Source: Cyanidioschyzon merolae (Eukaryota). From it: a stretch of 64,000 nucleotides of DNA. The position numbers and the translations under genes were made by a program. The notes beneath the pieces were generated by a model. It saw only the letters and a program-made list of their open reading frames with translations. It was not told the origin of the DNA and did no database searches. Position 1 is the stretch's first letter, and each line of letters opens with the position of its first letter. The DNA is taken from NCBI GenBank assembly GCA_000091205.1, contig AP006494.2. One strand, 5' to 3'. Positions 3,232 to 63,100 of the stretch are shown here, piece after piece.

Positions 3232-3306
3232 GAAATGAGCAACGAGTCGGGTGTGCTTCGAGGGCCCGTCTGTACACGGCTTTTATAGCGAACGCGCTGC
3301 GTAACT

Positions 3307-3518
3307 GCTAGGTCGCTAGGTCGCTAGGTTGCTAGGTCGCTAGGTCGCTAGGTCGCTAGGTCGCTAGGTCGCTAGGTCGCTAGGTCGCTAGATCGCTTGG
3401 TCGTTAGGTCGCTAGGTCGCTAGGTCGCTAGGTCGCTAGGTCGCTAGGTCGCTAGGTCGCTAGGTCGCTAGGTCGCTAGGTCGCTAGGTCGCTAGGTCGC
3501 TAGGTCGCTAGGTCGCTA
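3307..3518. repeat. Minisatellite (GCTAGGTC)n, about 26 units with a few point variants
   Basis: Direct reading: gctaggtcgctaggtc... with variants gctaggtt, gctagatc, gcttggtc, gttaggtc. Confidence 0.95.
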
Positions 3519-12390: not shown

Positions 12391-14113
12391 TTCTAAATAA
12401 ATAACATTTCGATCGCTCTTGGGTTCACGGAGACATCCTTGGACAGGGATACTTTTCGCGATTGATCGCAGTGTTTACAGACGTCTTTCAAAATACATGA
12501 CTTCCAATATCGACCGACTATCGCGTCAGCCACAAAGCACCGGAAAGTGTCACTGTGTGCATGTAGTGCATGGACCCCACGTCTCGCGTTAAGGACCCTG
12601 CTTATCCACTGGGCATTGAGTCGAGCACTCGCCCATTCGGAGGCCCAGTATACGCAGAGCAATGGCACATTCACTGCGAACGCCGATGTTCGTAGCGCTC
12701 TGAGCACAGTGTCGGAGGCCCTTTCTGCCGATGCTCGGTGCCTCGACGACCTCCACAAGCACACAGGGCAATTGTGGAATCCCGCCTCGTCGGTGGAATA
12801 TACGAGTCATTGCCATCTACAATCTGTTGCTGCATTCGCGAGCATATGAGAAGCCTATGCAAGCGGCATCTGTCTACGAGCAGAGGGCACTGGGCCCTGG
12901 ACACTCGCTGGTGCAAGTTCTTCGACACGATGGCAACTTGTGCTTCGATGCGTCGTCTCCGGATCTCAGAACGCGCTCGCTGCGGACGCTTCGGGCAGCA
13001 CTCCACACGTACTTAGCTGAGAATACGGCTTCAATGGTATGCGGGGTCGCTATATCGCCTTCATAGAACTCCGGGCTTCAAGTCACCGTGTTTATAAGCC
13101 CTAAAGAAATTGCTACAATGTTTTCGTTCGCACACCTCAGAGTATGCCAGTCTTTGCGGTGCGTCGTGTCCCGCACTGAGCGACGAATAGACCAACAACA
13201 TGGAGATCTTGTACTCGTGTGTGTATGTACTTGGTACGTGCTTCTGAGGATCTAGTCCGAGTCACTGGCAGGAACGATATCGATAGAAGGCCAACACCAT
13301 TTCGACTAAGCCAAGTAGAGTGTCACGAAAGAGAATCCTTCTGAACTGGAGACTCCTAGCCTGGCTACAGCCAATGTTGGGCGTTTCGTTCTTGGACGCA
13401 GCGCGCCTTATATGCCGGTAACGCATTCCCAACTGCATTACCGACTCTGAACCCGGAGCGTTTTATACTCCATAATGCAAAACGCAAACGACAGCGCCAC
13501 TCCAAACGGATGCAGCTCCGAAAAAGCGTGAGTTCCACGTACCGATTCTCATCTGGTATACAGCGACGCGCTCTGAACATCTCGCGGCGTACCCGAGTGG
13601 GTCCTTCGAATGACGATGACGATGCACTAGTCTTTAGACAGTCACAGGGACCTGTAGTAGAGCATCGCGCAAAACAGGAAGCGCTTTCCGAGCAGCACAA
13701 GAGTCGGCGATCCAGCCTGATCGAACGGGCCTCGGTAGCAAACGCCGGTTATGTCGATGACGATAGCCATCGCACCCGTAATCATGGAAATCGTGGAAAT
13801 CTCCTCTTCCGGACACTGTTTGCATTGCTCCATCAAAGCGAAACACCAGCTGATATGAATTGCTCTCGTGATGCGTGACGTGAACGCTCCTCTCGAGAGG
13901 CAGCACACATCCGGTGCAACCTCGAAAGCGTTCCGGCCGCTCTCAAGGCGGTGTTGTTAAGCAACCACCCGATCGTTGCGATAGCGCGTATCCGCATACC
14001 GGTGTGCTTCTGTGGCCCGTCGAGAATCAATTCATGTGGACTGACGGTAGCTTCGGCGCGCAAGCTGTCGGGAAATCGGACGCAAAGTTCGCGTTACCAA
14101 ATCGATCACCGCT

Positions 14114-17278: not shown

Positions 17279-17744
17279 CGAGACTGCTATGGCTGAGCGC
17301 ACTCGGTGGTAAACCGCGAGCGCTGCGACAGTACTGACACAGCGATCATAGTGCCCCGCAGTTGCGGAACATGAGAGGCGTGTCGCTGTAGACCCGTCGA
17401 AAACTTTTGTTGCCTTGCAGCTCACGCGGTTAGCGCGGGTCGCAGCTTGCGAGCACATTCCCTTGGCAGGAGGTGCACGGCGAACGAAGTGCATCCCTGT
17501 AGCGAGGCGACGAGGCGTCCCAGGAGCCACACGCGGGCATCTCTTGCACACGCTGCGGCTGGTCTAGGCAGCCTTCATCGAACCTAAAGAGTCGCTATAT
17601 ATAGCGCCCGTGCAAACGTTTCGACGCGAGTCAGCGTCACAGTTCGAGGAGTGCAACCGCGCCCGCCTCCGGAAGCCTTGGCTACTGTTGCGAGCGTAAG
17701 GCAACGCCTGCAGGAGAGCGAGGTACCGCCTGGACCGCGGTGTC

Positions 17745-18380
17745 TCGCAAGGACACTTCAACGCTGACCATATTCTACGCCGTCGACTTTTGCAGCGCTT
17801 CACGATGACTGGTGTATCCTAGTGCACGAGCAAGACTCTGGCTTTGCTCTAGGTCGCCCAACGTAACAGAGCTGCAACTGTGTTTCAACGCTGACCATAT
17901 TCTACGCCGTCGAGTCTTGCAGCGCTTCACGTTGACTGGTTTATCCTAGTGTACGAACAAGACTCTGGCTTTGCTCTAGGTCGCCCAACGTAACAGAGCT
18001 GCAACTGTGTTTCAACGCTGACCATATTCTACGCCGTCGAGTCTTGCAGCGCTTCACGTTGACTGGTTTATCCTAGTGTACGAACAAGACTCTGGCTTTG
18101 CTCTAGGTCGCCCAACGTAACAGAGCTGCAACTGTGTTTCAACGCTGACCATATTCTACGCCGTCGAGTCTTGCAGCGCTTCACGTTGACTGGTTTATCC
18201 TAGTGTACGAACAAGACTCTGGCTTTGCTCTAGGTCGCCCAACGTAACAGAGCTGCAACTGTGTTTCAACGCTGACCATATTCTACGCCGTCGAGTCTTG
18301 CAGCGCTTCACGTTGACTGGTTTATCCTAGTGTACGAACAAGACTCTGGCTTTGCTCTAGGTCGCCCAACGTAACAGAGC
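17745..18380. repeat. Tandem array of a second, unrelated 127-bp unit, about 5 copies
   Basis: tcaacgctgaccatattctacgccgtcga... recurs at 17758, 17885, 18012, 18139 and 18266. There is no similarity to the 11771 array. Confidence 0.9.
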
Positions 18381-18791
18381 TGCAACTGTCCTCCTGCGCG
18401 CACGCCTCCAATGCCAGTACCAGTGCCGGGAAGAGCAAGTCCTTGAGTAAACGCGAAACGCTGTTCGTTCTCCTCGATAGACGGTGTTCATCCAGGCCTG
18501 GCTCTCGGAACAACCCGATTTCTCCTGCGGGCAAACAGAACGTGCCCTGGGGTGCGTTATTCTCAACGTATCCCGCACGAAATCGAACGCAAAAGCACCA
18601 GGGAAACGAAGCAGAAACGGTGTTTTCGTGGTGGCGGTCGCCTGGCGTTTCAAGAGACAGTGACATCGTTTCTGTCACTTGGGTGCCAGTTACAGACCAG
18701 GAAACGTATTCGTTTCCGTCACCGCCACTGTGGTACGCACCAGAGCTGTTCCTGGTGTGCGTTGAGTGCCACTTTCAGCTACAGTCTCACA

Positions 18792-24649: not shown

Positions 24650-25285
24650 TCAGGCAACTGAGTCAGAAGCGGCATCAGTATCGTTCATTTGAAGCATATT
24701 CGGATGAAATCGTCGAAGGAAAGTGCGCAGCGCAGTGACGCCCTCAGCAGTTAGCAGCGGAAACCTAAATACCACCAAAAACACGACGCCGTCCTCGCGC
24801 TTCCCAACACCGAACCCTTCCCCTTGAATGGCAGTGCCACGCCGCCCATAGACAAGGGCAATGCGCGGCTCCTGCCGGTCGCTCGTCATCGGGTACCAAC
24901 AGTGAACGTCGTAGTGGCGAGCGCCGAGCCCTAGGCCGGCGCGCATAGCACTCTCTCTCGACCGGAATAGTGTCTGGTACGATTCACAAACCGTTTTTAT
25001 CCACTCGCTCTCAAAGTTGTGCTGTAGTAAAACGCTTCCATCCGCGGCTGTAAGCAGCAGTCGGTGCCACTCGTAGCGGCGCGCCAGAGACGCTGCCAGC
25101 GGGGTGCTCGCACCGGCTAGCGTGCCCGTTTCACTCGTAGCCGTTGAGAGCGAAGGCGAACGTTCCGACCACGCCCAACTTGGTCTTGAGCTGCTCACGT
25201 CCTCGAAATATTCATCCCAGGTTGATTCCGAAGATATACTGGGGTTTCGGTGACCAATCACCACGAACTCTGGACCCGTGGCCAT
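24650..25285 (-). CDS. Hypothetical protein (211 aa), no family recognised
   Basis: ATG-initiated ORF confirmed at 25283-25285. It lies between ULP1 and an AT-rich zone. There is no motif support. Confidence 0.3.
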   Translation of the reverse strand: MATGPEFVVIGHRNPSISSESTWDEYFEDVSSSRPSWAWSERSPSLSTATSETGTLAGASTPLAASLARRYEWHRLLLTAADGSVLLQHNFESEWIKTVCESYQTLFRSRESAMRAGLGLGARHYDVHCWYPMTSDRQEPRIALVYGRRGTAIQGEGFGVGKREDGVVFLVVFRFPLLTAEGVTALRTFLRRFHPNMLQMNDTDAASDSVA

Positions 25286-25500: not shown

Positions 25501-25865
25501 CGCAGCACTGCTGTTCCGGTGACGCAACCGCGCAATCCATGCATCTGCGGTATCGTGCAGGAGCCTCCTGCAACTCCACCGCGTCGCCATGCGTTCCTGT
25601 GCACACGGGTGCCGTACAAGACGGATATCGCAAAGAGCGATCTTCGCGTGGACGTCATGAAAACGGCGATTGATCTGTGCGCTTAAATCTGTGTCCAGAT
25701 GAACTGGAAATCGTCTCCATAACGAACATAGGTATCCACACCACAGCCTCTGGGTATGTTCCCGGTATGATCAACACTCGACTTGGCCGGCGTTTTATGC
25801 TACTACTTCCTTTTTCTCTCACTTGTTTTGGGGACCATGCAAGTTTGTCTCTCCTTTTCCTTCGG

Positions 25866-26123
25866 CTATGCTTTCGGCATGCGAAGCGTGTTCATGGCAG
25901 CGTCCAAGTCACGATTTCGTCGCTTGCGGCTAGTTTCAGCACGATGCATGCCCGGTCGCAAGTTATGAACTACGCATCGAATGCAATATACATCTCGTTT
26001 GTATACAGAGCCAATGCGAACTGCGCAGCGGTGACACTTGTTCGTGTTCAGGTGTTCGCATACGCCCAACGCATTGCATCCCCTTTCGAGCGCTACCCCA
26101 CGGCACGTGACTGCTTGCTTCAA
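25866..26123 (-). pseudogene. C-terminal fragment of a TnpB/Fanzor-type RuvC nuclease: zinc ribbon CxxC-x15-CxxC followed by the RuvC-III motif
   Basis: Translated by hand from the minus strand: ...NTNKCHRCAVRIGSVYKRDVYCIRCVVHNLRPGMHRAETSRKRRNRDLDAAMNTLRMPKA*. The C-x2-C...C-x2-C then RDxDAAxN order is the TnpB/Cas12 C-terminal arrangement. The upstream part is absent or decayed. Confidence 0.55.
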
Positions 26124-27115
26124 TGCCTAATACACGCCCTCGATTGGTACACGGGACTCGCCTCGATGCCCTCATCCGTTGGCGCCTTCGCTGCCGCTCA
26201 CGACCATCAGATCCTTCTTCCCCGCGATTTTCTCGCTGAGTTCTCGATCTGGTGCACACGCTTGCGCATGCTGTCTCATTCGATGGAGGATTTGGAGAAC
26301 ACTTTGTCGTCCGTGATGAAACAAGTACCAGAAAGGAATTCGAGTCAAGTTATCTCGATCTGTCTACGCTTACCTCGTACAAAGCTGTGACGCACACTCC
26401 ACAGCGAGCAATCGTTTTTATGACCAATGTCCGAATCCAAGACCCTTTTCCATGCTAACAGAAACAACGCGAGCCTTTGAATGCATCGCACTTGAAGGAT
26501 ATCATGCCGCCGCCGAATGCCATCTAATCGATACCCGCAAGTACATGGCGATATACATTTCGTTTGGAATCGATTTTTCGACATTTTCAGTGAACACTCC
26601 AAATGAGATTGAGAAAAAGACGTCTAGCGACGTCTTCTCGTATTACCCGTCCATACAGTGAAACGAAATGCTCTGCCAAGGTGCTTTTCCAATCGAATCC
26701 TCGACGAATGCGCGACTTGCGCTTGCTACAATTAAAGAAAAGAGAGACATGAAGGCTTGAGCTTATGAATAGGGCCATGATATCGGTTGTTTTACGAACT
26801 CTTGTTCTAGAGCATCGATAACCACCTTGATGCCAATGCTGGAACCAAGTCCGGCTGCAAATGGAATAAAGAGCCACTCCGGAAACATGACATGGGATCC
26901 TTTACCCATCTACGAATCCGTATGCCCCTAGTGCAACATTTCAAACGTCCATGCTGTATATCTGAAAACCTCTCGGGGAATAACTCTCAGGACAGGAAAA
27001 CGGCATGCACTTCAGTATCCCATTTGCATCCGGCAAGAACGTAGCGGCAACAGGGAGTTTAGAAGAAGCTCAAGGCGGCGACCGACGCTGCCGGCGCCTT
27101 TATCGCTCGGGTATC

Positions 27116-28819
27116 CTAGACGCGAACGGCTCGCCCGGGTCGTTCGCCAATAAGAAACAATGCCTTTACCGGTGGGGGAAAGGCTCCGCGCTCCGCCGTC
27201 CAACTCGTTCCATTTGGGTCCGACGCCAGCTCGCCACCAAGCTCGACAGCAGCAGCGTTGCGACAGAGTGCGTCCAAAATCACAACGTTTGCCTGCTCGT
27301 CTCGCAGCTGCAAACGAAGCGTACCACGCGCACCGTCTCTTACCACAAACTGCATGCCGTGACGGGTCGGACCCAGTACATACGCCCCTGGTTCAGCGGT
27401 CTCAGCGGAGACCTTTACGCTATAGCGCGTGCCGTGCGCTTCCATCTGCCAGTTGCCCCACTGGACACTCCAGGATATGCGGCGGCAGTTCCAAGCAGCG
27501 AACTCCCACAAATATCCCTTCCAGTGGAACGCGATGATACCAATGGTTTCCCGAGCTACAACCTTATTCGGTCGCTGGGGCCAGCAGAGCTCTCGACGCG
27601 CTCCCACACAGGTCAAAGTCAACGGTGCATCGATGTCTGCGGACGACAGCTCCAGCGATGATGCGTCCTCTCGGAGCACGTCAAAGACGTGACACTGCAG
27701 CCAGAACCATCGCGATGGGAACGCACTGCCCCAGTTCTTCTCGATATACGTGGGTGCACGCTCGAAGCGAAAAACGCGACCATGCCAGTCCCGAAATATA
27801 CCAGTGGATCGAGCGAAAGCAGAGAGTATCTGCCAGCCTGGTTCAAAGACTTGAAAACGCGTGAGCCAGGTTCCAGTCGAGCGCGCACCATCCGAACCCC
27901 ACGATAAGAGCGGCTCGATTCGCATATCGAAAGCGCAACTTATGTCTGGGCTCAGGTGCGCTACCATGGAACGCTCTCGATCCACATCGTCTGCTTGGAT
28001 CGAGCCCTGATGCCACTGAGCAGAGAGCTGATATCCCGTATGCACGTGTTCTCGGAAAAGACTAGGGGCCAGGGAGCGCGCGTGCTCTGCTCGTTCGTCG
28101 CTGAGGAGGTCACTCGTTCGACCCCACTGACCAATGCGTAACGTCGACGTTGGCAGGTGCCGCAGCGCCGGAAAAAAGCCATCCATCATTTCTCGCGAAA
28201 CAAGCAGCTCGTCCTGCACTCCAGAGCTCAAAACCTGTATTCGACCCCTGCGACCGTCTTCCAAGCTGTACATGAACGCCAGCGAAGTCGCCTCTGTGGG
28301 CAGCACGATTCGGACGTACCAGCCCTCGAAGAATCCACGATCTACGCTCGGCATATGAACACCGGCGTGGGGAAGTTCCAGGGGATCTGCGGTCTCCTTG
28401 GTCGCCTCATGATGACAACAACGTTCGTCTCTGCGTCGCCTCGCACCTGAGACCCGCTTCAGGGTACGCAGACTGCCACGAGAACCCCCAGATAGCACAT
28501 GCTGTCGAACGGGGCTCGCATCCAGCGACGAAGCGCTCCGCCGGCGTCCCGTGAGAACTGCACGCGGCCCCGTTCCTGGGTGATCGTTGTACCAGCTTGA
28601 AACGAGCAGCGACCGAGCCCGGTGCCTATGCTTTCTCCATGGTGGCTCTGGGAGTGCCCTGCAACGACCAGCGTGCTCCTGGTACGCGTACACAACAACA
28701 GAGGACAGCGGAGACGACGGCGACACCCACGCTGCCGCTGCGTTTACGGCAACCTTGCCGCTTCGGAGCTCCCGTTGGACCTCGAACCCCGAACCTCTAC
28801 ACTGGAGCTTTTCTCGCAT
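27116..28819 (-). CDS. VTE1: Tocopherol cyclase (VTE1/SXD1 family) with an N-terminal extension of about 150 aa that could be a targeting sequence
   Basis: FFEGWYVRIVLP, FEPGWQILSAFARSTGIFRDWHGRVFRFERAPTYIEKNWGSAFPSRWFWLQCHVF are colinear with plant and cyanobacterial tocopherol cyclase blocks, recalled from memory. ATG confirmed at 28817-28819. Confidence 0.65.
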   Translation of the reverse strand: MREKLQCRGSGFEVQRELRSGKVAVNAAAAWVSPSSPLSSVVVYAYQEHAGRCRALPEPPWRKHRHRARSLLVSSWYNDHPGTGPRAVLTGRRRSASSLDASPVRQHVLSGGSRGSLRTLKRVSGARRRRDERCCHHEATKETADPLELPHAGVHMPSVDRGFFEGWYVRIVLPTEATSLAFMYSLEDGRRGRIQVLSSGVQDELLVSREMMDGFFPALRHLPTSTLRIGQWGRTSDLLSDERAEHARSLAPSLFREHVHTGYQLSAQWHQGSIQADDVDRERSMVAHLSPDISCAFDMRIEPLLSWGSDGARSTGTWLTRFQVFEPGWQILSAFARSTGIFRDWHGRVFRFERAPTYIEKNWGSAFPSRWFWLQCHVFDVLREDASSLELSSADIDAPLTLTCVGARRELCWPQRPNKVVARETIGIIAFHWKGYLWEFAAWNCRRISWSVQWGNWQMEAHGTRYSVKVSAETAEPGAYVLGPTRHGMQFVVRDGARGTLRLQLRDEQANVVILDALCRNAAAVELGGELASDPNGTSWTAERGAFPPPVKALFLIGERPGRAVRV

Positions 28820-29443: not shown

Positions 29444-31060
29444 ATGACCTTTAGCAAGTACACGTCGCTACTTACTTGTTTGAGCCCGTTGCTGGTGGGA
29501 GCGCTGGTGTCGCTACGGCCCTGTGTCGGTTCACTGCTGCACCTGTTGTTGTCGTGGCTATGGATGCCTGGACAAGTTCGGGGACGTTCTCGGGCTATTC
29601 GACGCCTTCATAGTTTCGCCACGAGTCTCAGCTTAGGATATGCCTTGGTGTGGATTCTGGTATATTTGGGGCTGCGGTTCAGTGGACTTACTCGAATGGA
29701 CAACGTGTGGACACTCGATCGGAGCCAGACTCATGCGACGCGCGTAACAGCGTCTGCACTGGGCATTCCGCCTTGGTCACCCGCTTCGGATGTGTTTCTT
29801 CATCTATTGTGTGGAATCCTTGCCTGGTTTGCGTACCGCTATGGTGAAGACGAGGCCGTCTCTGCAACACTAGAGCGCGGGAGGCTGCTCTGGAGTCAGG
29901 TGGCCAAGGTTTCCTGGCTTGTACTCGTCGCTTCGCTGCCGCCAAGCATCCCATCGGCGCTGCTCTACACGCTGCTGGTGCTTGCCACACTACTTTCAGA
30001 CTCTGGACAGCGTCGCCCGATAGCCAGTCGTGGAGGCGCAACGAAAGAGACCTCGGGACGCGTGCCGCGTGGTGTCGCTAGGCGTCGCCTGCAGGCTGTG
30101 GTGCTCACAACAGCCCTTGTTCTTTGTGCGCTCCATACGGTGGCGAGTTTCGTGTTTCAGTGGGCGTGGATTCGGAGCACACCGGCGTCCGAGTCAGTAT
30201 GCGGCCAGCTTTTTGGTCTGCAGGTCCTACAACGTGAGCGCTTCGTAACCGCTCGCGGTGCGGCGCTGGTGCTGCTCGCTTCGTGGCGCCTGCTCAGTCT
30301 GAGGGAACCCATGCTGGTGACCTGGAAAGCATCAGGAATGGGTACTCCTCGCGCTGCTGCAGTGCTTTCATTCATGGTTACAATGATGCTGTGCTCGCAT
30401 TGGCCAGGAATTTTCGCCTTGGTGTTAGCAGGTCTGGCTGAACTCGCGGTGCTGCTGACCGGGGTCTCGGTTTGGCAGACAGTGATGCGCATTCTTGCTG
30501 CGGTTGCCACGATCCTTATCGGACTTGTCGCTTTCATTTTGGGAATCATTGCGACGGTGGCAAAGCGTACTGTGCCGACGTTCTGGGGGTTGCCTCTCGT
30601 GGGCCGGTCCCTCTTGTGGAATGCCTGGCTCGTGTTGTGTCCGCTCCTGTGGACACAGCAGCGGCTGCCCACGGAGCAGAAATCGAATCCACTGGGACGC
30701 CTGCTACCCAGCGAGTACGTGCCCCAGTACGTTGCTTGGTTGCTTCTGGTTGGCGCACTTGCAGCCTTGGTGCAAGACTGGCTGCTCGGTGTGCTGGTGG
30801 CAGTACTCGCCATCGGCGTACGAACTGGAAAGGTAAGGCACCTGGAGGCATGGGTGTGGCTGCCGCTGCACGGCTGGGCTGCTCTGATTTGGAGCCTGCG
30901 TTGCGGACTTTGCGGTTTCCAGTCCGGTATCCTCGCCGAGTCGTGTATCCGGTCACCCCAGCAGTGTTATGTATGGGTTGCGCTTGCGGCAACAACTGCC
31001 GCTGGATGGGTGTTCCGCGTGCAGCCGCAGGTCTCGGCGGATCCCGAAAGAAACGATTAA
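29444..31060 (+). CDS. Hypothetical polytopic membrane protein (about 10-12 predicted TM helices), family unknown
   Basis: A 538-aa ATG-initiated ORF with repeated hydrophobic segments of 20-25 aa. The antisense ORFs in the same region are judged spurious because of the GC-rich codon bias. Confidence 0.45.
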   Translation: MTFSKYTSLLTCLSPLLVGALVSLRPCVGSLLHLLLSWLWMPGQVRGRSRAIRRLHSFATSLSLGYALVWILVYLGLRFSGLTRMDNVWTLDRSQTHATRVTASALGIPPWSPASDVFLHLLCGILAWFAYRYGEDEAVSATLERGRLLWSQVAKVSWLVLVASLPPSIPSALLYTLLVLATLLSDSGQRRPIASRGGATKETSGRVPRGVARRRLQAVVLTTALVLCALHTVASFVFQWAWIRSTPASESVCGQLFGLQVLQRERFVTARGAALVLLASWRLLSLREPMLVTWKASGMGTPRAAAVLSFMVTMMLCSHWPGIFALVLAGLAELAVLLTGVSVWQTVMRILAAVATILIGLVAFILGIIATVAKRTVPTFWGLPLVGRSLLWNAWLVLCPLLWTQQRLPTEQKSNPLGRLLPSEYVPQYVAWLLLVGALAALVQDWLLGVLVAVLAIGVRTGKVRHLEAWVWLPLHGWAALIWSLRCGLCGFQSGILAESCIRSPQQCYVWVALAATTAAGWVFRVQPQVSADPERND

Positions 31061-32913
31061 TCGCCGTCTAGAGCGGACCCTGCCAGCTGGTACATCCGGG
31101 GATGGAGCAAGATAACAGCACGCCTTTTCCGTATCAGCCGGTTCTGTATAAGCAGCGTTGCGAGCTATGTTCCCGTACGTCCTGAAGCGAAAGGCGGCAG
31201 ACGCTGTACATGCCGCGTTTTCGTTGATTCCATATGACGTTGTCTGCACGAGAGCGGCTTCATCCAGGAATCGATTGATTCTTGCGATGCGGTTGCAGGG
31301 GAGCTGGGGCGCGGGCATCGCGCCCCAGCGATATCGACCTGATGCTGGCGCCTGCCTCGGCTCTATGGTTAGCTTCAGCGTCCCGCGCTGGTCTCTTCAC
31401 GGATAACGTTACCGCTACCCGAGCCGGATCGGTTCGACGGATTCAGGCGCTAATCAGAGCAGCGGCTACATTGAAGAGCGCAGCAGCAGAAGCTGCCTGC
31501 CGCAGATGAGAACTGCACACCGGCCGCTGTACGGTTCCGGTCAGGTACGCTTTCCGCTCGAAGGAGACCGAAAACTGGCCTAGCCGGCCAGTCGCGCCGC
31601 TTGTTGCGTTTACTTGCTTCAGCGTGCTTCTTTTCATCAAAGTCTGGATTCGCACCAGGCGCTGAGACGTCTCTGCTTTCGTGCAGTATTGCAAAACGGC
31701 GACACAAGCTGAGATACCTTCCGCTTCTTGCTCGTATTTCATAAGGAAATGCTTGGAATACGACCCGCTCTCGAGTGTATGTGCGCGAAACGAGCACCCG
31801 CTGCGTCCGGGCATTGTTGTTGCATATCTGCAGCTTCGGTTGCAAGGAAAACGAAAGCAACGGATGCGGACGCTGTTTGTGCTTACTACGATGCGGATCC
31901 TGCACCAGCTTGTGCTCAAGCTTTGGACTGGACGCATCCATTTGCTCTGCGAGAACGCGCTGAAGGTTTTGCTGCACGTGAGCGTTCATTCGCAGGTGGA
32001 AGCTCGGGCTTCTGATCGGTATCAGGAACGCAGTCTCAGGGAGACACGGCTCACACGTTGACATTGGACTGTACGTGGCGTTCCGCGTACCGCCAGACAG
32101 ATGCGTTATCATGTAGTAGCGGGTGTGTGTGTGTATGTGTGCGTCCAACAAAAACGATCACCGAGTCAAGCGTCGTGGTATTCACGTGTCGAAGCCGTGT
32201 TACGGCCGCTTCTAGTCAGCCGGATGCATGGCAAGCATCACGTTACAGGCTTGCTATATACAGCATTCTGAGCCGATTCAGTTTGAACCTTTCATATCGA
32301 AACGATCGAATTTGTGTCGGGATATAAGACACAACGGTCATGAAAAATCATATGTGTTTCCGCTTCAGCACCTCGCTTGAAAGTAAAAAATCAGTGTCCA
32401 TAAAATCCTGCGATCGTCTCGATGATGATACTGAGGATGGTGTCACAGCGACCGCAACGCAGTCGGAGACAATGCAACTAGACGACTGTGCTGGGAGCAT
32501 GCCAGCTGCAGTTTCGAGATGCGCACATGCAGTCGTCAGTTTCGCTTATGCTTGTATCAAACGAGTCTTTCTGCAAAAATGACGATGCATACACTCGTGT
32601 GACCAGAAATGCATCTATTGCCGAGCGTGGCTTCAAGAATCATCCTGTGTGCAGGCGTTGCTCGGCATTCGAGGCAAGTCATCGATGCAGAATCCGCTGG
32701 TAGTTTGCGGAGTCAGTTAGACTAGGACGTCCCTCTTACAGAGCACTGATTTTCGTGCTTGCAATGGAGTGAATAGTGTGCTGTTCCATCCAAGTGTGTG
32801 GTACAGTAGAGCACTGAATCCGAGAAAAGCTCACGAAGAACTTTCTTGGACTCGCCGACACCTCCCCGAGTGCGTCTCTCAAACGCCAAGTGGTCGTGTT
32901 TCTACCTGCTTCT

Positions 32914-39977: not shown

Positions 39978-40280
39978 AAACGAACGCTTGTTTGCGTCGC
40001 GGAAGCCGTGTAACTCACCCCGGTTTGTTTTTCGTGAGCATCAGGTGGCGGCCTGGTGCCTAGCAAGCAGCGTTGGTACCACGAACGCTTGTTTGCGTCG
40101 CGGAAGCCGTGTAACTCACCCCGGTTTGTTTTTCGTGAGCATCAGGTGGCGGCCTGGTGCCTAGCAAGCAGCGTTGGTACCACGAACGCTTGTTTGCGTC
40201 ACGGAAGCCGTGTAACTCACCCCGGTTTGTTTTTCGTGAGCATCAGGTGGCGGCCTGGTGCCTAGCAAGCAGCGTTGGTA
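39978..40280. repeat. Tandem array, 101-bp unit x3, upstream of TOP2; two further diverged direct repeats of about 100 bp lie at 39470-39690
   Basis: cgaacgcttgtttgcgtcgcggaagccgtgtaactcaccccggtttgtttttcgtgagcatcaggtggcggcctggtgcctagcaagcagcgttggtacca recurs at 39981, 40082 and 40183. Confidence 0.85.
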
Positions 40281-42668
40281 CCGACGATGCATATCGTAGC
40301 GCGTTTTACACGTGCTGTGCTCTGATAGCACTCGCGAAAACATGCTGTCGACGAGAACTCGGCAAACCAAGGCCTCCCGGTGGATACCGCGTGCGTCACA
40401 GAAACATGTCGCAAAAGAATATGTGCTACAGAGGCATCGTCGGAGCAAGCTAACATCCATTCGTGGACACGACGTTGTGATGTCCTCAAAGACAATGGAT
40501 ACTTCGATCAGGGAGTACCTGGAGGCGCTACGATGCGGTATATACCTCGCTGCATGCGTCACTGGGGGGCGCCTTGGAACGTCACAGCACTGCTGGCGAC
40601 TGGTGCAAACACGACCGCCTCCTGTGTGCGTGTTTGTTTGTGGTGGCTTCCATATCATCTAGCTTCGTTTCGTGCTTGAGCCGGAGAGCCCAGACGAAAG
40701 CGTTTGCTCCTGGATGTGGCCCCAGACTAAGAGGCAGACGCGAATCTCGGCAGACGCTGGCCCCTGCATCTCCATTTGGAGCGCCTGCTGGTACCAGCGT
40801 AGGAGCAAGTCCTTGCACCATGTTGCGGGCACAATTGCTCAACGTCGGTATCGGAGCATGCCGCACAGCTACCTCGTGCCGATACCTTTCAGGTCAATAA
40901 AGCGAAGCCTTCCACCTCGGTGGGGCAGCTGAGGAAGCCAGTCGGAGGTCGTCGCAAGCGGCGATGACGACGACAACTGTGCCGCCAGTCACTTGGCATC
41001 CACCTTGCTACTGAATTCAGCATCTATTCCCTCCAGGACGTTGACTCTGGGACTCCCTGAAATATAGCAGTATCGATGGGAGAACGATGGCCTGTTCGCT
41101 GCATACACGCAGCAATGACGAACGCGGAAGTATCGGATTAATGAGAAGGATCTCCAGTCATGGAGGAATAGACACGGCGGGAATCGTACGACGCTCGGAA
41201 GCAGGCTTATGAGCCGCTGTGGGTCCAGAGCGTCGCTACCCTCTTGAGAACGTAAAATGGAGCACTGAATCGTTTGCTATGTACCTGAATGTCGAATGCT
41301 TTCCGAGCTCGTTTTATATATACGGCCTCGACACTTGATACGCAGGAGGAAGAAGCGCTTACGCATTCAAACACAGATATAGGATCTTCTTCCGTGTTTT
41401 CGTGGTGACTCCATTGACTCGTGGACGCTGGGATTCCTTAAGTTACTGGAATCAAGATCATGCATGACGCAATAGAGCAACGACACATAGAGTAAACGAT
41501 GTCATTATCCAATTTATACTTTGAATCCTTTAGGCTTCAATCTTTCGTCACGAACAGCATGTTCAAATCACGCATAATGCAACTGCTCTATTTTTTGGTT
41601 CAAGATAAGTTGTGAGCGCGGCAATCCGCTTCGGTGGACTGATGAGAAAAAAGCACGACGTTGTCGCTTTCCTAGATGTTTACAAGCTCGCTCCAATAGC
41701 TCACTGAAATCTTTACGCCCAACGATAACCCATGGCGTTCCAAAGACCAATCCTCCGCTTTTTGTTGCCATCGAAGAAACAGCATTCGGTAGCGGCATGG
41801 TGCCGCTTACGGCATATGCCTCCAGAGGCTCCCATCGCTTCTATAGGCATTGAAAAACTGTCTTGGTTATGGGCTCACCCTTTTACTCACCAAAGTGGTT
41901 GCTTGCATTTGAGTCGACGTCGCCGCTTTGCACGGAGCATTCGTAGACGGATCTGGACTTTTCGATTTGTACCGCAGACTGGATTATCCTCTTGATACTT
42001 GCTACATCAAGGACAGCCTCTTTTCCACACACACTTTACTAAATAAAAAGCCTTTCCTTGCGCGTGCAGCAGACAGCGTCTTCGCCTAGTTCATCGTTCA
42101 GAAGAAAAACCCCGGATCGTGGGGTACTGCACCAAGCGTGGAAACGGAGAAGGGTATCCAACGGAGCCGTCTGTCCGGCCAAGGGCATATACAGCGAAGT
42201 GAAATAAGCATTCAGGCGCTTTAGGGCGTCTCTCGGAGAACGGCTGGTGATGGATCTATATGGTTACCCCTTACCAGCGTCAAGTTTCACCGCTTCACAG
42301 CGCACACGCGGGCTGTTTATAAAGAAGATGAAAAGCGAAGTGAAATGCGTCGATCACTGTAGTCGCCTGTGCACAAAACACTTGAACAACAACAGCAGGC
42401 AGCGAGATCGGCTCTTGAACGCTGTTATCAGCATCCTTCGTCTGCTAACACAAGAATAGACCAGAAAACAGAGATCGACCTATGGATAGCCAGAGATATG
42501 AGAGAAGCAACCCCCAGCAATCTCGTAAAAGCACGCAAAGACTCACTTCGGTAAAATCAGCAAAAGACACAAGCCTTGTCCTCTGAACATCAGCGTTCAT
42601 TTGCTGCACCAGGTGCAGCCGCTACCCAAGTAGCTCATGAACATTACCATCATCATGATCATCACCAT

Positions 42669-43046
<378 letters not shown>

Positions 43047-43195
43047 CCGCCGTAGAGCGCGCCTGGCGATCGACCGCCGCGCTGTTCGCGCGCCGCCAGC
43101 CACGTCGTGCGGCGTACATAAGCCGCTCAACAGCTGCTGGTCTGGAAGCGCGCTACACGCCTGAAGTTGCAGCGCTCGTGGGCACATTCGCCACC

Positions 43196-52490: not shown

Positions 52491-52501
52491 AATCGCCGAC
52501 A

Positions 52502-55000
52502 CCGAACACTTTCCAAAAGTCGAACGACGCCAGCGGTGTACAGTAGTGGCGAGAAGCCCGCTCTGGACAAGAAGTCTTCAGCTGAGGTGCAGACGCCTCC
52601 CCGTCTTTACGGACCGGCCACCCACCACTGATTCCAATGTTTTCTCATATAGTTCCATTTTGAGTGATTGTCCAATAAAGTTCACTCTTGTCTACTCTGG
52701 AGGTCTCGTCTCCAGCACCGCACATTTCCTTATATTGATAGCGGCATTAAAGTCTCTGTTCACAAACTCCATATGTTTCGTGCCATCACTGGTTGTACTC
52801 ACTAGTGCAAGTAGCCATCGAACTTTCGCTCTCCCTTCCATTTGCTCTTCCGTCAGCGCTCCGTACTTTTGTATATCTTCAGGACTCGTCTGGCACTTTT
52901 CCATCTCCAGTCTCTCTGAAGTGTACAACCCAGTTCATGGTGTGTATAGGACGTTCGAAACTCATCTGTCGGTATCGTAACAAAACGCCTTGCGCACGCC
53001 TTGTACGTTCTTGTCGTTGGAGCTGGCGTAGTCCCTTTTTAGGTCATCCATCGCCCTGGTCCGTACGCTACTACGAGCCTCTGACCCTCATCCCTATTCG
53101 CGGCGCTCAGCTGATTGAAAAAATTGGCGAATGCACGCTGCTTCCCACAACAAAGATTCATTCGCAAATGAGCCCACCGAGGCTTTGTATACTCCTCCCA
53201 CGGCGCATTCCAATGGGCAACACGAACTTCCATGAATTTCCGAAAAGCTTCAAAGTCGGCTCCTCGGCTGGTCACCTCGCTCAAAGCCCCAAGGTGATCC
53301 TTCATTCCTGAATTCCAAGACTCGATTTTCTTCCTCGCATTCATTATACAGGACTCTCGATAGTGTCTCGCTCCCGAGAGCCTCAACAGACGCATGTCTT
53401 TCTGACGCAAGTTACCATCAGTACCATTTTCCGCACGCTTCGGTGCTGCGATGGTAATGATATTCGTATTCCCAGGGTCCGCGCCAACGACAAAGTCGTT
53501 ATCCTGCACTTTCTGCATCGCAGGATCCGCCTCCTTCTTTTCTTCCTTTTTCACCGCGTCAAAGACAAGGTCGTCATCCTGCACTTTCTGTGTGGCAGGA
53601 TCCGCCACCTTGTTTTCTTCATGCTTCGCCGAGGGCAATATCGAAGACGGACCAGGACAATCTGTCTTCAACCGCCAGTAGTGTACACACTTGGATACCC
53701 CATCGGTTTTGATCAACCCAGTGGATATCTTTTGTTTGCTCACTTTGAGACGTTTGAAATCGAAGACGTTCTTCCAGTACGTCTCCCGCTTGTCACCGGT
53801 GAACTCTGTCTTCCATACATCAAACTCCGGACAGATCTCCTTCAAGATGCCGTAAAGGACGCCGGAATCGATGCTCACAAAATGTGACCGGATGTTGCAG
53901 ATTGGAACCACGTTGAAGCGCTTCCCCATTAGGACAGCCTTCCGACTCTCCCATTCATCACTTTTTCCTCACTCGGCTATATCTCCGCTTTGCATTCGAG
54001 TTCTCGGTCCAGGAACACGAAATAGCGCAGAATGAGGCGGTAGTGTCTTTCCTTACCTTTTTCAACTCTGATACCTTGTCTATTGGATTCGCCAGCCCCA
54101 AGACTGCAAGATGCTCTTTAATAGCCGCACGGATGACGGAATCCTCATTTGTGCTCCTGCGTGACGCCTTCTTGTCGACAAAGTCGATCTCATCTTCATG
54201 CTTGCGATCGTTCGTGATGCCATTGAAAATCGCCCATATCCCTTTGCCAGAGATACCAGGGTGAGTGCAAACACGGGGCGTATCATGAAACGTTCACGGT
54301 TCATAGTCGAATGGTTCTTCGGATTTGTGAGGCATTTCATGGCCCCATAGAAGCAAATACCCCAGTCACCCATGTATCGAGTACCGTCAAAGCGGAATTC
54401 GCGTAATTCCAGTGGAGGGCGTTCATGTGCTCATTTCTCCTTGACTTCTCCCCTGCGCCCAGCACCAGGTGGCGGATAAAGCTCCTGTTGAAAAACTCGT
54501 CCGCGACCTCGACTGTTTTGATGTCCGTCACGTCGCGATACATCTCTCTCGCTGAATGCATCAATCCTGACGACGACTTGACAATAATCTTGGAGTACGA
54601 GCCAACACGTTTTTGATAGCGTCTCGCAACTTTTCCCCGTAGGGATCCTTGATATGTCCAAGAAGGAAGGTTTTCACCACCATCTCGTTGTACAGGCGTC
54701 TTTCTTGCCGCCTTCGACGTAGGGCCTCCCCCTTTCGGTTCTTCTTCTCTTCCTTTTCTTCTGGACTCGGCACTGTTTTTTGTTTTTTTCTAGCAGCCGG
54801 CGACAGTGGGCCTCCAGGATCGTCGACTTGTTTTTTCATAACTTTTCTTTTATTAGTTTTTTCGAAAAAGAACGCTCTTTGAACGCTTCTGTTATATACT
54901 GCGAACAAACACATGAATACACTTGTTTGAGGTTTAAAAACACAAATGAACTGAGTAACTGTACTTTGCTACGACCCGAACGGAAATCCAACCTTTATAG
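52502..55000 (-). mobile_element. Copy 1 of an element of about 2.4 kb encoding a TnpB/Fanzor-like RuvC nuclease. The left boundary is approximate. The right, 3' end abuts the helicase start codon.
   Basis: It is homologous along its whole length to the copy at 60681-63100, at roughly 65-90% identity by eye. The 3' 190 bp after the nuclease stop, and the RuvC-III coding block, are the most conserved parts. Confidence 0.6.
52692..54839 (-). pseudogene. Fanzor/TnpB-like (OrfB_IS605 superfamily) RNA-guided-nuclease homologue. N-terminal basic NLS-like tract, Ruv[12 protein letters not shown], a degenerate RuvC-II/zinc-ribbon region, and RuvC-III NRDFNAAINI. Disrupted by at least 2 frameshifts and 1 in-frame stop.
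   Basis: N-terminus MKKQVDDPGGPLSPAARKKQKTVPSPEEKEEKKNRKGEALRRRRQERR, with the ATG at 54837-54839. Segment [19 protein letters not shown] matches the TnpB RuvC-I pattern VGIDLGITN. RTYKACARRFVTIPTDEFRTSYTH matches the YKA...V.P..TSQ.C linker, with the Cys residues lost. The C-terminus reads KHMEFVNRDFNAAINIRKCAV*. The consecutive ORF segments 54561-54839, 54337-54564, 54080-54373, 53039-53929 and 52692-52928 lie in shifting frames. Confidence 0.65.
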
Positions 55001-55170
55001 CTAAACAGCACGCTATTCATCAGGATCACGTTTCGCTTCAACAAAGGCACCGAGCGCGCCGTGACCCATGCCTGGCAGACCTCCCCGGTTCGCTCACCGA
55101 GCACGACGCGCTTTTGAGGCCTGGAGTGTGCTGGTGGCTACTGCCTGGCACTCCCGCTTTTGCACATTGG

Positions 55171-58864: not shown

Positions 58865-60508
58865 CTAGGCTACAGCGAAGCCTTCGTACCCACCAGCTGC
58901 AACTTCTGCACATTTCTGGCGATACTTTCCGACACCACCTGTGTAGGAGAGCATTCGACGAGGCTTGCCTTCAACGTTGGTGCCGGTGTACCACGAGTTC
59001 GTCTTCGAGAAGAGCGTGCTGTTTGCCAGGTCATCGTGGTGCCGCACCCAGGCCTCCTGGAATGAGGCTGTCGGCTCAATAACGTTATGCCCCTTCGCCT
59101 GTATATACTGGATACAGTCAGTGATCCACTCGACCTGCTGCTGTAAACACGTTGTCATGTTGCACAAAGCTGCCGAAGGCGAGAGCGGCGCTCCTGTTAG
59201 GAACATGTTCGGATAGCCGTGCACCATCAAACCAAGCGCACTGCAGATATCCCGACTCCATTCCTCCTTGAGGCTGCGGCCGTCTCGTCCGCGAATATCG
59301 ATGCGTATAAAGGCTCCGGAGCTCGCATCGAAACCAGTTGCGAGAATGATGATATCGAGTTCATGTACGGTTCCATCAGCGAGGCGGATCCCTTCAGGAA
59401 CAACCTCCACAATCGGATTGTTTCGCACACAGATCGCTTCGACGTTGTCGCGGTGATAGACCTCGAGGTAACCAGATTCCAGAGGGACTCGGCGCGACCC
59501 GAACCCGTAATCTGTTGGCACCAAAATCTCGATAAGTTTTGGGTCCTTAAGTCTTGCACGCATCTTTTCGCGTACAAACTCCGACACCTCTTCACTGATC
59601 TGCGGGTCCGTGAAAATCTCGTCGAAACCACCGAGCCACGCACGTAGTGAACCGTCGTTGTAGGTCTCCTCGAGCACCGCAAGTCGCTGCTCGGGTGTCA
59701 GATCCGCCCAGCGATGCTTGATCACGTATTCGAATCCACTGGCTGTCGTTGGCAAGAGTTCGCGCAGCTCCTCGAAGCGTTTCTTGTACGAATTGACGTC
59801 ATCAGGATTGTACTTGGGATTCTTCATCGGCACAACGTACTGCGGCGTTCTCACAAAAACCTTCAGCTGACCGACCTTGTCTGCAATAGTCTGGATAACT
59901 TGGATTCCAGTCGCACCGACACCGACAACGCCAACGCGTTTGCCATTGAGGTCAATTGGCTCACGGGGCCAACGAGCGGTGTGGAAGATGCGTCCACGGA
60001 ATCGTTCCTGACCAGGGAATCGGTTCTCTAACGGGGCCGATAGCATACCACAACAGCCAATTAAGAACCGTGCATCGTAGGTTTGTCCTCGATCCGTCTT
60101 GATGATCCATCGCCCACGCTTTTCATCGTATTCGGCCGCAGTGACTGTCGTGCAGAAGCGCAAGTAGGGTCGCAGCCCTAGGCGGTCGGTAACGTAGTGC
60201 AGCCAACGCTCAATTTCGGGCTGGCCCGGGAAACGCTCACTCCAGGACCAGTCTTTGTACAATTTCTCATCAAACAAGTATTGATATACATAGCATTCAG
60301 AATCAAACTTGGCGCCGGGGTAGCAGTTCCAGTACCAGGTACCCCCAACGTCTTCCGCAGTGTCCACAGCAAGCGCATTCAATCCAGCCGACCGAAGCTT
60401 GTGTAGCTGGTACAGGCCTGCGACACCAGCGCCAATAATCAGTGCGTCGAGTTCAACAACGCTTTTGTTTTGAACGTGGTTGGTGAATTGGTTGAGCTCC
60501 GCTCCCAT
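58865..60508 (-). CDS. Type I Baeyer-Villiger monooxygenase (FAD/NADPH-dependent, cyclohexanone/phenylacetone monooxygenase-like)
   Basis: N-terminal Rossmann motif IIGAGVAGL, BVMO fingerprint FRGRIFHTARWP (FxGxxxHxxxWP), and a second dinucleotide motif GKRVGVVGVGATG. ATG confirmed at 60506-60508. Confidence 0.85.
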   Translation of the reverse strand: MGAELNQFTNHVQNKSVVELDALIIGAGVAGLYQLHKLRSAGLNALAVDTAEDVGGTWYWNCYPGAKFDSECYVYQYLFDEKLYKDWSWSERFPGQPEIERWLHYVTDRLGLRPYLRFCTTVTAAEYDEKRGRWIIKTDRGQTYDARFLIGCCGMLSAPLENRFPGQERFRGRIFHTARWPREPIDLNGKRVGVVGVGATGIQVIQTIADKVGQLKVFVRTPQYVVPMKNPKYNPDDVNSYKKRFEELRELLPTTASGFEYVIKHRWADLTPEQRLAVLEETYNDGSLRAWLGGFDEIFTDPQISEEVSEFVREKMRARLKDPKLIEILVPTDYGFGSRRVPLESGYLEVYHRDNVEAICVRNNPIVEVVPEGIRLADGTVHELDIIILATGFDASSGAFIRIDIRGRDGRSLKEEWSRDICSALGLMVHGYPNMFLTGAPLSPSAALCNMTTCLQQQVEWITDCIQYIQAKGHNVIEPTASFQEAWVRHHDDLANSTLFSKTNSWYTGTNVEGKPRRMLSYTGGVGKYRQKCAEVAAGGYEGFAVA

Positions 60509-60680: not shown

Positions 60681-63100
60681 CCGAACACCTTAAAAGTTAA
60701 ACGAGGCTGCAGTCGGCAGTACAGAAGTGGCTAAAGCCACCGAAACAAATTGTTCGCTGGCGAGGTGCAGACACCTCCCGGTCTTTTTTGGCCAGCGACC
60801 CACTCTAGCTTCCAATTTCGTTCCATATATGCTAGCCTTGACTCATTATGGGAAAAAAATCCTTCTTGTCCACTCTGCATTTCTGTTCTCCAGCACCGCA
60901 CATCTCCTTATATTGATAGCGGCGTAAAATCTCTGTTCACAAACTCCATCCGTTTCTTGTCATCATTCATTGAACAAACTAATGCAAGTAGGCCTCGGAC
61001 TTTCGCCCTCTTTTCCATTTGCTCTTCCGTCAGCGGTCCATACTTTGCTATATCTTCCGGAATCCGCAGGCAGTGTCCTATCTCGACCCGCAGGAGTCGA
61101 GATGGAAAACTCGTGGGGTGTATGGACCTTCGAGACACACGTAAAGGTATCGTCACGAAACGCCGTGCACACTCATTGTACGTTCTTGTCGTTGGGGCTG
61201 GCGTAGTCCCTTTTTTTTTCGGAACCCATCTCCATGCTCCGTATGCTACTACGGGCCTCTGACAGTCGTTCTTCTTCTAGGTGCTGAACTCTTCGAGAAA
61301 ATTCGTGAACGCCCACTGCCTACCACAGTACAGCCTCACACGCAAACGAGCCCACCGGGGATTTGGATACATTTCCACAGTTCCACCTAATGAGCAACGC
61401 GAACATACCATAAATTTCCGAATAGCTTCAAACCCGGCTCTGCGGCTCGTCACCTCGATCGTAGCTTTCCGATGCTATTTCATCCTGCACTCCATGTCTC
61501 GAATTCATCATCGTATTCAAGATTCCCGCTTCTCCGTAGTATCTCGCTTTCGAGAACGTAAAAAGATGCATGCCTTTCTGACGTAAGTTGCCGTCAGTGT
61601 CAACATCCCCATGCTTGGGTACTACGATGGTTATGATATTCGTGTTCCAGGCATTAAGGCCGACGAAAAAGTCGTTTTCGTGGATATTATAAGTCCCATG
61701 GCCCGCCTTCTCCTTCTCGTGCTTCGACAAGGGGATACCGAAAACGGGATAGGACGACCTGCCTGCAAACGCGGATGGTGTACACATATGTCGCCATCAT
61801 TGTAACCGATTGTCCAAGTGAGAACCATGTTTTGGCCAGTTTGAGACGCTTAAAATCGAAGATATTCTTCCATTAGGTGTCCCGGTCGTCGTCGGTGACA
61901 TCTTTGTTGCTTACATCGAGCTCTGGCGAGATCTCTTTCATGAAGGCGTTAAGGACTCTGGAGTCGATACTCACAAAATATGACTTGAACTCGCATCACC
62001 AAACGGCAATAAAGCGCATCAAGAGAAGCAATTCAACGTCGTTTCTCCGACGGTCATTTTTTCCTCAGCTCCATTTCGGCCATGCCTTCGAGTTCTCTGC
62101 GCAAAATCATGAAGTAGTGCAGAATGGGGTGATAAAATCTCTCTTCGTTTTCTCTGACATCTGAGAATTTTTCACTTGGGTTGACGAGCCCCAAGCGTTA
62201 GCGATGCTTCTGAATAGTCGCGCGGAATACTGAAGCCTCATCATATCTGCAGCGTGATTTCGTCTTTTCTACAAATCTGATCTGCTGTTCATGCTGGCGA
62301 CATTTCTAGTCCGCATAGATGATTGCCGAAATCCCTTCAGGAAACAGGCCCGGGTACAGCGCAAAGACGGCCCGTATTACACAACATCCGAGGTATGCGT
62401 TCTTATGGTTCCTCGGATTCGGGAGGCACCTCATGGCCCTGTATTCGTAAATATTAGCGTCATCCCTGTGTCCAGCACCATTGGTGCGGTATTTGACGTA
62501 ATTATTGAGAAAGGCATGCATTCGGTCATTTCTCCTCGATGTTTCCCATCGCAAACAATCAGGTGGTAAATGAAAGTCGTTTTGAAAAATTCATCAAGGA
62601 AACATCATTTTTGCCATGTGCGTTACGCCGCGATGCAGCTCGTTCTCAAAAGGCGTCGGTCCTAAAGAAAAGTAGCAAACATACGTGGCGCACGAATCGA
62701 CACTGTTTCTGTTAGCGCCACGCAACATTCAGTCGTACGGACCATTGATATGTTGGAAAAGAGGGGATTCCGCCACCATCCCGTCGTACACACGCCATTC
62801 GTGCAGCCATCGACGAAAGGCCTCCCCGATTAGCTTGTACTTCTTTTCTTGATCGTCTTCGCTAGGCACTGTTTGTTGTTTTCTTCCAACAATTGGCAGC
62901 ACCGTTAATCCTCAACCCTTTATTTCCACATGAAAATGTCTACTTTTTTTTTGGGGAAACCACATTGAACGCCTCTGCGTTGAGCGGCGAACATCAGTTG
63001 AATACCCCTACTTGAGGTTTGAATCACGACAGAAGCCAAAACTATACATTGCGACGATTTGATTGCAAGTATAGCTGGCCCCGATAGAGCAATAGCTCCA
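60681..63100 (-). mobile_element. Copy 2 of the Fanzor/TnpB-like element, more degenerate than copy 1. The RuvC-I Asp is replaced (FVGLNAWNTNIITIV) and there is a 1-nt deletion in RuvC-III (MEFVNRDFTPLSI*).
   Basis: ORF fragments at 60908-61156, 61428-61787 and 62306-62554 are homologous to copy-1 segments. AMRCLPNPRNHKNAYLG matches copy-1 AMKCLTNPKNHSTMN. The N-terminal region and the 3' non-coding region are also conserved with copy 1. It lies about 170 bp upstream of the BVMO ATG, in the same orientation. Confidence 0.55.

Follow-up and report, generated by a model that had tools for sequence, protein, structure and literature searches.

How did a red alga come to carry, within a single stretch of 64 kb, a gene for vitamin E synthesis and a gene for an enzyme whose closest relatives outside the algae are bacterial? 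The stretch, here called the window, is a segment of 64,000 nucleotides from Cyanidioschyzon merolae (contig AP006494.2). It encodes a VTE1-type tocopherol cyclase and a type I Baeyer-Villiger monooxygenase (BVMO). An initial annotation, made from the sequence alone, named both enzymes, took them as the mark of an algal nuclear genome and proposed that the BVMO could have been acquired horizontally. Two puzzles follow. Did the two genes reach this genome by the same route? And does their proximity reflect a shared function?

Taking all of its parts together, we consider the following account very likely. The window is part of chromosome 12; VTE1 was inherited vertically and the BVMO was gained horizontally; the two genes are neighbors by synteny only; and the Fanzor1-like copies beside the BVMO inserted later. 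The C. merolae 10D reference already carries annotations for the two genes, and as a discovery the result is of minor weight. The BVMO gene, its enzymology and its status as a case of horizontal gene transfer (HGT) are already published and VTE1 is already catalogued; neither is new. The additions are small: an age for the transfer that precedes the split of three genera, the alphaproteobacteria with BVMO-esterase-AraC clusters as apparent donors, and a gap in the NCBI label of VTE1.

The window belongs to nuclear chromosome 12 of C. merolae 10D. Each focal protein has full-length identity of 100% with a protein of this strain. One 859,119-bp record holds both (BAM80894.1 and BAM80902.1, eight accession numbers apart), and VTE1 is listed under the locus name CML326C, in which the prefix "CML" denotes chromosome 12 (PMC12649381). 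The assignment follows from these two identities, the common record and the locus name. Other long open reading frames (ORFs) of the window encode E2F/DP, a fused type II topoisomerase, a Ulp1 protease, ELMO, PP1, and PHD and RING fingers, which are unmistakably eukaryotic nuclear proteins. The genes are long, intron-free, uninterrupted reading frames, GC content is 55%, and ARAGORN found no tRNA genes in the 64 kb. The early proposal of an algal nuclear genome, which had leaned on E2F/DP and an intron-poor organization, is borne out on each point, and the organism proves to be the "thermoacidophilic red alga" that had been offered as an example of a BVMO carrier. Herein lies some value as a calibration: a reader of raw sequence correctly named both enzyme families and the lineage, and recognized a probable HGT. 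The BVMO region recurs in metagenome contigs from three samples, where DNA identity is 99.0%; close relatives of 10D therefore occur in nature.

Identity of the monooxygenase

The 547-residue product of the BVMO gene matches the "steroid monooxygenase" of C. merolae 10D at 547 of 547 positions (BAM80902.1, XP_005536938.1, M1VDM5). The coordinates given for it initially were exact (Table 1), as was its assignment to the type I BVMOs. The class fingerprint is present as FRGRIFHTARWP. In the PDB, the protein aligns end to end (residues 15-546) with phenylacetone monooxygenase (PAMO, 1w4x) at 490.9 bits (E 5e-146), followed by CHMO, STMO and OTEMO. Residues D69, R220, R340 and W506 align with D66, R217, R337 and W501 of PAMO, of which D66 and R337 are the catalytic Asp and Arg, and all are conserved. 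On this evidence the gene encodes a complete type I BVMO.

PAMO of Thermobifida fusca is 43% identical to the window BVMO and has all of the class motifs and the four residues named above in common with it. These shared motifs and residues imply the same mechanism, a peroxyflavin mechanism dependent on flavin adenine dinucleotide (FAD) and reduced nicotinamide adenine dinucleotide phosphate (NADPH). The enzyme would insert an oxygen atom beside the carbonyl of a ketone through a flavin-peroxide intermediate, yielding an ester or lactone. The two proteins also differ. PAMO is actinobacterial, whereas the window BVMO falls in another subgroup, labeled "acetone/cyclohexanone monooxygenase" by JGI, at 73% identity. 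In the active site, I67, H220 and S444 of PAMO are replaced by S, Q and C. Alignment to 1w4x reveals no N-terminal extension relative to PAMO, and for this reason the protein is probably cytosolic.

An enzyme known as CmBVMO has been expressed and characterized as a biocatalyst, reportedly by Beneventi et al. in 2013. We take BAM80902.1 to be this enzyme, and the two are very probably the same; the equation is by organism and name, not by accession number, and the genome may hold further BVMOs. Two later sources cite CmBVMO as characterized: one as moderately thermostable, with a melting temperature of 56 C (bioRxiv 10.1101/2024.04.05.588253), and the other as a rhodophyte BVMO (Mascotti et al. 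2015, PMC4498894).

Origin of the BVMO gene

Where did this gene come from? A search with the protein returned 7,925 significant matches. At the top stand the C. merolae cluster itself, Cyanidiococcus yangmingshanensis (79% identity) and Cyanidium caldarium (78%). Bacterial proteins come next at 66-73%, the best non-algal match standing at 73%. Outside the three algae, the named proteins among the matches listed are all bacterial and mostly alphaproteobacterial; no other eukaryote occurs among the best 120 of the 7,925, about one quarter of which are named. Among the solved structures matched, the only clearly eukaryotic BVMO is that of Aspergillus flavus (5j7x), which scores 365 bits compared with about 950 for alphaproteobacterial matches.

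Phylogeny agrees with these identities. Trees were built by neighbor joining (NJ) on Kimura-corrected distances, with 100 bootstraps for the BVMO. The three algal sequences are monophyletic in every replicate (100/100) and nest within a clade of 42 sequences (98/100) whose named members, Zavarzinia, Rhodovulum, Paenirhodobacter, Paracoccus, Amaricoccus and Kiloniellales, are all alphaproteobacteria. Three of the nearest non-algal relatives were looked up in their genomic context (P0004, P0007 and P0083), and all three sit in bacterial gene clusters, together with AraC regulators, a beta-lactamase-fold or alpha/beta hydrolase, SDR and PutA. The hydrolase would be an esterase that cleaves the product of the BVMO.

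The initial suggestion of a horizontal origin is thus supported by the NJ tree, by the levels of identity and by the bacterial contexts of the nearest relatives. Together they indicate a single, old and by now fully domesticated transfer, probably from an alphaproteobacterium-like donor; the donor group itself we infer from the named relatives. Because orthologs exist in all three genera, the acquisition is placed before Cyanidioschyzon, Cyanidiococcus and Cyanidium split. Their common ancestor would have gained the gene once. On the donor side its companions would have been an esterase and an AraC regulator, in a cluster for the catabolism of ketones; the monooxygenase alone was retained. Since then the gene would have shifted to host composition while remaining under strong purifying selection.

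The loci of the closest bacterial BVMOs (L006, L007 and L008) share one or more AraC-family regulators and an esterase of the beta-lactamase-fold or alpha/beta-hydrolase type, sometimes with an SDR. This shared neighborhood indicates a putative catabolic module leading from ketone to ester to alcohol and acid, from which the algae appear to have kept the monooxygenase alone.

Base composition had been considered as a place where foreign ancestry might show. It does not show there: the G+C content at third codon positions (GC3) is 0.60 in the BVMO and 0.60 +/- 0.03 in 19 neighboring genes, and the likelihood of its synonymous codons is equally typical of those neighbors (GC3/codon z = 0.07). 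Host-like composition means that the transfer is old and ameliorated, and it is no argument against transfer; after so long a time, a comparison of GC3 and codon usage cannot detect a foreign origin. Conservation is high. Against an environmental strain, the coding sequence has a single difference in 1644 nt, as compared with 0.8-1.0% in intergenic DNA; no other feature of the 15 kb aligned is as well conserved. The BVMO is accordingly still under strong purifying selection.

Several points weigh against a horizontal gain. The BVMO tree, a distance tree and not a maximum-likelihood one, comprises the best 120 matches, to the exclusion of distant eukaryotic BVMOs such as those of fungi and moss, and is rooted at its midpoint. 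Within it, support for what stands next to the algal clade is poor, at 48%. Most of the sequences are metagenome proteins, and the bacterial nature of the relatives rests on the three sampled contexts and the named subset. In addition, Mascotti et al. 2015 (PMC4498894) argued for an ancestral origin followed by differential loss, in the BVMOs of metazoans as in the entire family. Could the gene, then, be an ancient eukaryotic one, passed down vertically in these algae and lost in nearly all other eukaryotes? Its fully native composition and its presence in three cyanidiophycean genera would fit such a history. Yet the 73% identity to particular alphaproteobacterial enzymes nearly equals the 78-79% among the algal orthologs themselves, and the algal clade lies inside the well-supported clade described above, not beside it. 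Moreover, the one clearly eukaryotic structure is far off in score, and the corresponding orthogroup is absent from 11 Galdieria genomes (Rossoni et al. 2019). We give differential loss only a slim chance.

A second possibility is endosymbiotic gene transfer, with the alphaproteobacterium that gave rise to mitochondria as the source of the gene. That the named members of the surrounding clade are all Alphaproteobacteria is what such a history would predict. It would, however, demand that essentially every other eukaryote lost the gene and that 73% identity persisted for more than 1.5 billion years, a time in which the algal orthologs alone have already fallen to 78-79%. The relatives, furthermore, are free-living bacteria of Rhodobacterales, Kiloniellales and Zavarzinia type with a catabolic operon, and the BVMO lacks an N-terminal presequence. 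Descent from the mitochondrial ancestor is scarcely credible on these grounds.

Horizontal gain from a bacterium, the reading that we prefer, had been reached before. Rossoni et al. 2019 (eLife 8:e45017), who sampled two Cyanidioschyzon genomes, list orthogroup OG0006252, a cyclohexanone monooxygenase, among the HGT orthogroups of the Cyanidioschyzon lineage; they found it to be exclusive to that lineage. About 1% of cyanidialean genes are of bacterial origin, and a BVMO of this lineage is listed among them. Enzyme class, lineage and the conclusion of bacterial origin are the same for OG0006252 and for the window BVMO, and the NJ tree arrives at that conclusion independently. A caution counts on the other side: the equation of OG0006252 with the window gene is by matching annotation and lineage, not by gene ID. 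What differs is the age. The orthologs in C. yangmingshanensis and C. caldarium date the acquisition before those genera split.

What might the enzyme do in its new host? One idea is that the algae retained it for a particular endogenous task and not as a general oxidizer of xenobiotics. The reasons are the single difference in 1644 nt, the retention in three genera, and the dropping of the bacterial esterase and regulator. It is conceivable that the enzyme has a role in the turnover of ketones derived from lipids or isoprenoids under hot, acidic and oxidizing conditions. We regard the endogenous task as a long shot. A weaker reading is more probable: the "Cyanidioschyzon-lineage" label given in 2019 understates both the age of the transfer and the breadth of its inheritance.

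The tocopherol cyclase

VTE1 presents a different history. The 567-residue protein is exactly that of BAM80894.1 (XP_005536930.1, M1V8S8; locus CML326C). Residues 161-529 match the Pfam family PF14249 (Tocopherol_cycl) over the whole profile (1-335 of 335) at 278.6 bits (E 8.9e-83), where the curated cut-off is 26.6 bits. Both the coordinates and the family proposed at the outset therefore stand. No NCBIfam model matches the protein, and the PDB holds no relative even at E<=1, no member of the family having a solved structure. An alignment of nine sequences, five cyanidiophycean (the window VTE1 included) and four cyanobacterial, has some 80 invariant columns from P150 onward; the motifs PHxGxH, FEGWY, FMYS, FEPGxQ, EKNWG and WFW are among them.

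By its family, VTE1 would close the chromanol ring, converting dimethyl-phytyl-benzoquinol to gamma-tocopherol, which a last methylation turns into alpha-tocopherol. A paper of 2025 devoted to vitamin E genes (PMC12649381) reports an analysis of tocopherols for C. merolae and lists HPPD, VTE2.1, VTE2.2, VTE3, VTE4, VTE5 and VTE6 for the species, all of them outside the window. The same paper gives 41% identity between C. merolae VTE1 and the Arabidopsis enzyme (At4g32770). Cyanobacterial tocopherol cyclases, relatives within the same family, are about 35% identical to the C. merolae protein. In comparison with them, the latter has insertions specific to cyanidiophyceans and a C-terminal tail of about 25 residues.

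The family is small, at 418 clusters of 50% identity among 1.8 billion representatives. Beyond the cyanidiophyceans, all named relatives are cyanobacteria, green algae, plants or haptophytes, a distribution in agreement with the initial statement that VTE1 is confined to cyanobacteria and to photosynthetic or plastid-bearing lineages. The NJ tree unites the five cyanidiophycean sequences (100% bootstrap) inside a larger clade of longer proteins (98%). One member of the latter, P0229, sits among eukaryotic genes (GRAM/VASt, SKA2, XAP5 and cyclin). Green algal, plant and haptophyte sequences form a separate clade, also at 98%. The bootstrapped tree has no sign of a recent transfer of VTE1. Genes derived from the plastid usually show such a pattern, and inheritance looks vertical: VTE1 would have passed down within plastid-bearing eukaryotes, its ultimate source being the cyanobacterial ancestor of the plastid.

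The N-terminal extension of about 150 residues noted initially is real and measures 148 residues by alignment. It has a net charge of +15 and 9% acidic residues (Asp plus Glu), and no internal methionine occurs before residue 156. It has no cyanobacterial counterpart and is unconserved even between close orthologs. In 14 environmental variants it remains in frame while varying about 2.7 times as much per site as the domain. Basic, poor in acidic residues, unconserved and fast-evolving yet kept in frame, the extension fits a plastid transit peptide, its most likely but presumptive role. Chloroplastic plant VTE1 carries an N-terminal extension too, of about 89 residues in a plant representative. 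The length of the C. merolae extension speaks against this assignment: 148 residues is long for a transit peptide.

Some smaller observations concern VTE1 and its surroundings. The best relative outside the cyanidiophyceans is an 882-residue protein from the transcriptome of Pyramimonas parkeae (P0223), with the cyclase domain at residues 472-840; its roughly 470 extra N-terminal residues could mean that two proteins are fused, or that the assembled transcript is a chimera. At NCBI, BAM80894.1 and XP_005536930.1 still bear the name "hypothetical protein, conserved", while UniProt and JGI call the protein a tocopherol cyclase; this is an annotation gap and no biological finding. The adjacent ORFs at 29444-31060 (+), 24650-25285 (-) and 31450-32151 (-) have no match in Pfam. 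One of the ORFs next to VTE1 encodes a 538-residue protein that, judged by eye, looks hydrophobic and multi-pass.

Synteny, Fanzor-like copies and repeats

Does the proximity of VTE1 and the BVMO mean that they work together? The BVMO might, for instance, act on a ketone derived from tocopherol or phytol within quinone and prenyl-lipid metabolism. The spacing gives this idea some appeal, the two genes lying eight gene models apart both in C. merolae (BAM80894/BAM80902) and in Cyanidiococcus (CCYA16G4247/4255). Between them, however, are 30 kb with unrelated housekeeping genes (among them KAS, topoisomerase II, PP1, ELMO and a DEAD helicase). In Cyanidium caldarium the two lie on separate chromosomes (CDCA08 and CDCA15), and the bacterial relatives of the BVMO occur in clusters for ketone and ester catabolism with no link to prenylquinones. 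A functional neighborhood is highly improbable; the co-occurrence is conserved synteny, not a metabolic cluster or a functional link.

Synteny is broken by an inversion between C. merolae 48000-60508 and Cyanidiococcus contig L002 (1-10293). The Cyanidiococcus order is ELMO, rhomboid, DEAD helicase, BVMO; in C. merolae it is ELMO, DEAD helicase, Fanzor-like copy 1, rhomboid, BVMO. By BLAST, one breakpoint falls in a gene-less interval of 2.3 kb (56548-58864) and the other near 48.5-50.8 kb.

The genomic setting also disposes of bacterial contamination or an assembly artifact as the source of the BVMO. High identity to bacterial proteins is what contamination would produce, yet the chance of it is next to nil and it is effectively refuted already: the record is of chromosome scale and has eukaryotic genes and transposon copies specific to the host on either side of the gene, the arrangement recurs in the independent metagenome contigs at 99% DNA identity, the orthologs on contigs of Cyanidiococcus and Cyanidium are likewise flanked by eukaryotic genes, and GC3 and codon use are those of the host.

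Table 1. Positions in the window of the two focal genes, their parts and other features
Feature	Position	Strand	Basis or remark
VTE1 tocopherol cyclase, coding sequence (567 residues and stop)	27116..28819	-	PF14249 match; exact sequence identity; CML326C in PMC12649381
VTE1 catalytic domain, residues 149-567	27119..28375	-	opens at the conserved PH[AS]GxH motif; alignment
VTE1 N-terminal extension, residues 1-148, presumed plastid-targeting	28376..28819	-	unconserved, of variable length between orthologs
Type I BVMO, coding sequence (547 residues and stop)	58865..60508	-	547/547 identity; PDB matches; motifs
BVMO fingerprint FxGxxxHxxxWP, FRGRIFHTARWP, residues 170-181	59966..60001	-	regular expression on the translation
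Second BVMO motif [A/G]GxWxxxx[F/Y]P[G/M]xxxD, GGTWYWNCYPGAKFD, residues 55-69	60302..60346	-	ends in the Asp equivalent to PAMO D66
FAD-binding Rossmann motif GAGVAG, residues 26-31	60416..60433	-	motif search
NADPH-binding Rossmann motif GVGATG, residues 196-201	59906-59923	-	motif search
Fanzor1/TnpB-like copy 1	52502..54790	-	between DEAD-box helicase and rhomboid genes; self-BLAST
Fanzor1/TnpB-like copy 2, decayed	60681..62886	-	directly upstream of the BVMO, same strand; self-BLAST
E2F/DP	5058-6068		domain match

The host-specific transposon copies are the two Fanzor1/TnpB-like elements of Table 1. They share the same orientation and 66-73% DNA identity, are 2.2-2.3 kb each, and bracket the segment from the rhomboid gene to the BVMO. 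In copy 1, the ORFs of the minus strand carry a RuvC-I-like stretch and NRDFNAAINIRK (RuvC-III-like), the motifs GADPGNTN and NRDFNAAINI being recognized by eye; the frame is split into pieces of 117, 296 and 78 residues. Copy 2 has broken ORFs only, with degraded RuvC motifs (GLNAWNTN and NRDFTPLSI) and loss of the RuvC-I aspartate. At E<0.01, Pfam has no match for the Fanzor-like ORFs, nor for the remaining small ORFs near the BVMO. The Fanzor label of both copies should accordingly be read as a putative one, drawn from motifs recognized by eye and from the literature. There, the C. merolae genome is described as holding about 150 copies of CMe-1A, a Fanzor1 element with a length of about 3 kb; identity of each copy to the consensus is about 80% (Bao & Jurka 2013, Mob DNA 4:12). 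The window copies resemble CMe-1A in their TnpB-type RuvC motifs, a likeness set by description and not by alignment to the consensus; they differ in their interrupted frames.

Copy 2 ends 173 bp from the start codon of the BVMO, on the same strand, which places the BVMO directly downstream as the initial annotation had it. Did the element bring the gene? A tie between the copies and the acquisition of the BVMO was rejected, as no Fanzor-like element is present at the BVMO loci of Cyanidiococcus and Cyanidium. From that absence it follows that the insertion came later and was unrelated to the arrival of the BVMO; the copies would be lineage-specific transposon insertions. Divergence from the environmental strain, which is 99% identical, is 3.1% in copy 2 and 0.35% in copy 1, with about 1% in intergenic DNA. 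The figure for copy 2 suggests a pseudogene in free decay, or else a region that is locally misaligned or rich in indels.

Other repeats are scattered through the window. A dispersed repeat of low copy number links 25975-26463 to 49285-49783 through two short blocks that are 74-76% identical. The first copy overlaps an unannotated ORF of 237 residues (25677-26390, no Pfam match) just downstream of VTE1, and the second is near a putative inversion breakpoint; the repeat might represent another transposon family, such as TE-N2_CMe. Two tandem arrays, at 11640-12401 and 17630-18518, both have a period of 127 bp, about 5-6 copies each and 93-98% identity. They were considered as one family and rejected as such, the unit sequences being unrelated. 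The first array overlaps the 5' end of a 1305-residue ORF with a CobW domain. A 101-bp unit occurs in three copies of 99-100% identity at 39980-40282, immediately upstream of the ORF for topoisomerase II. Upstream of PP1, four copies of a 52-bp unit (42651-43065) are followed by a long run of CAT/CAG trinucleotides, and at 3259-3570 an 8-bp unit forms a microsatellite of about 300 bp.

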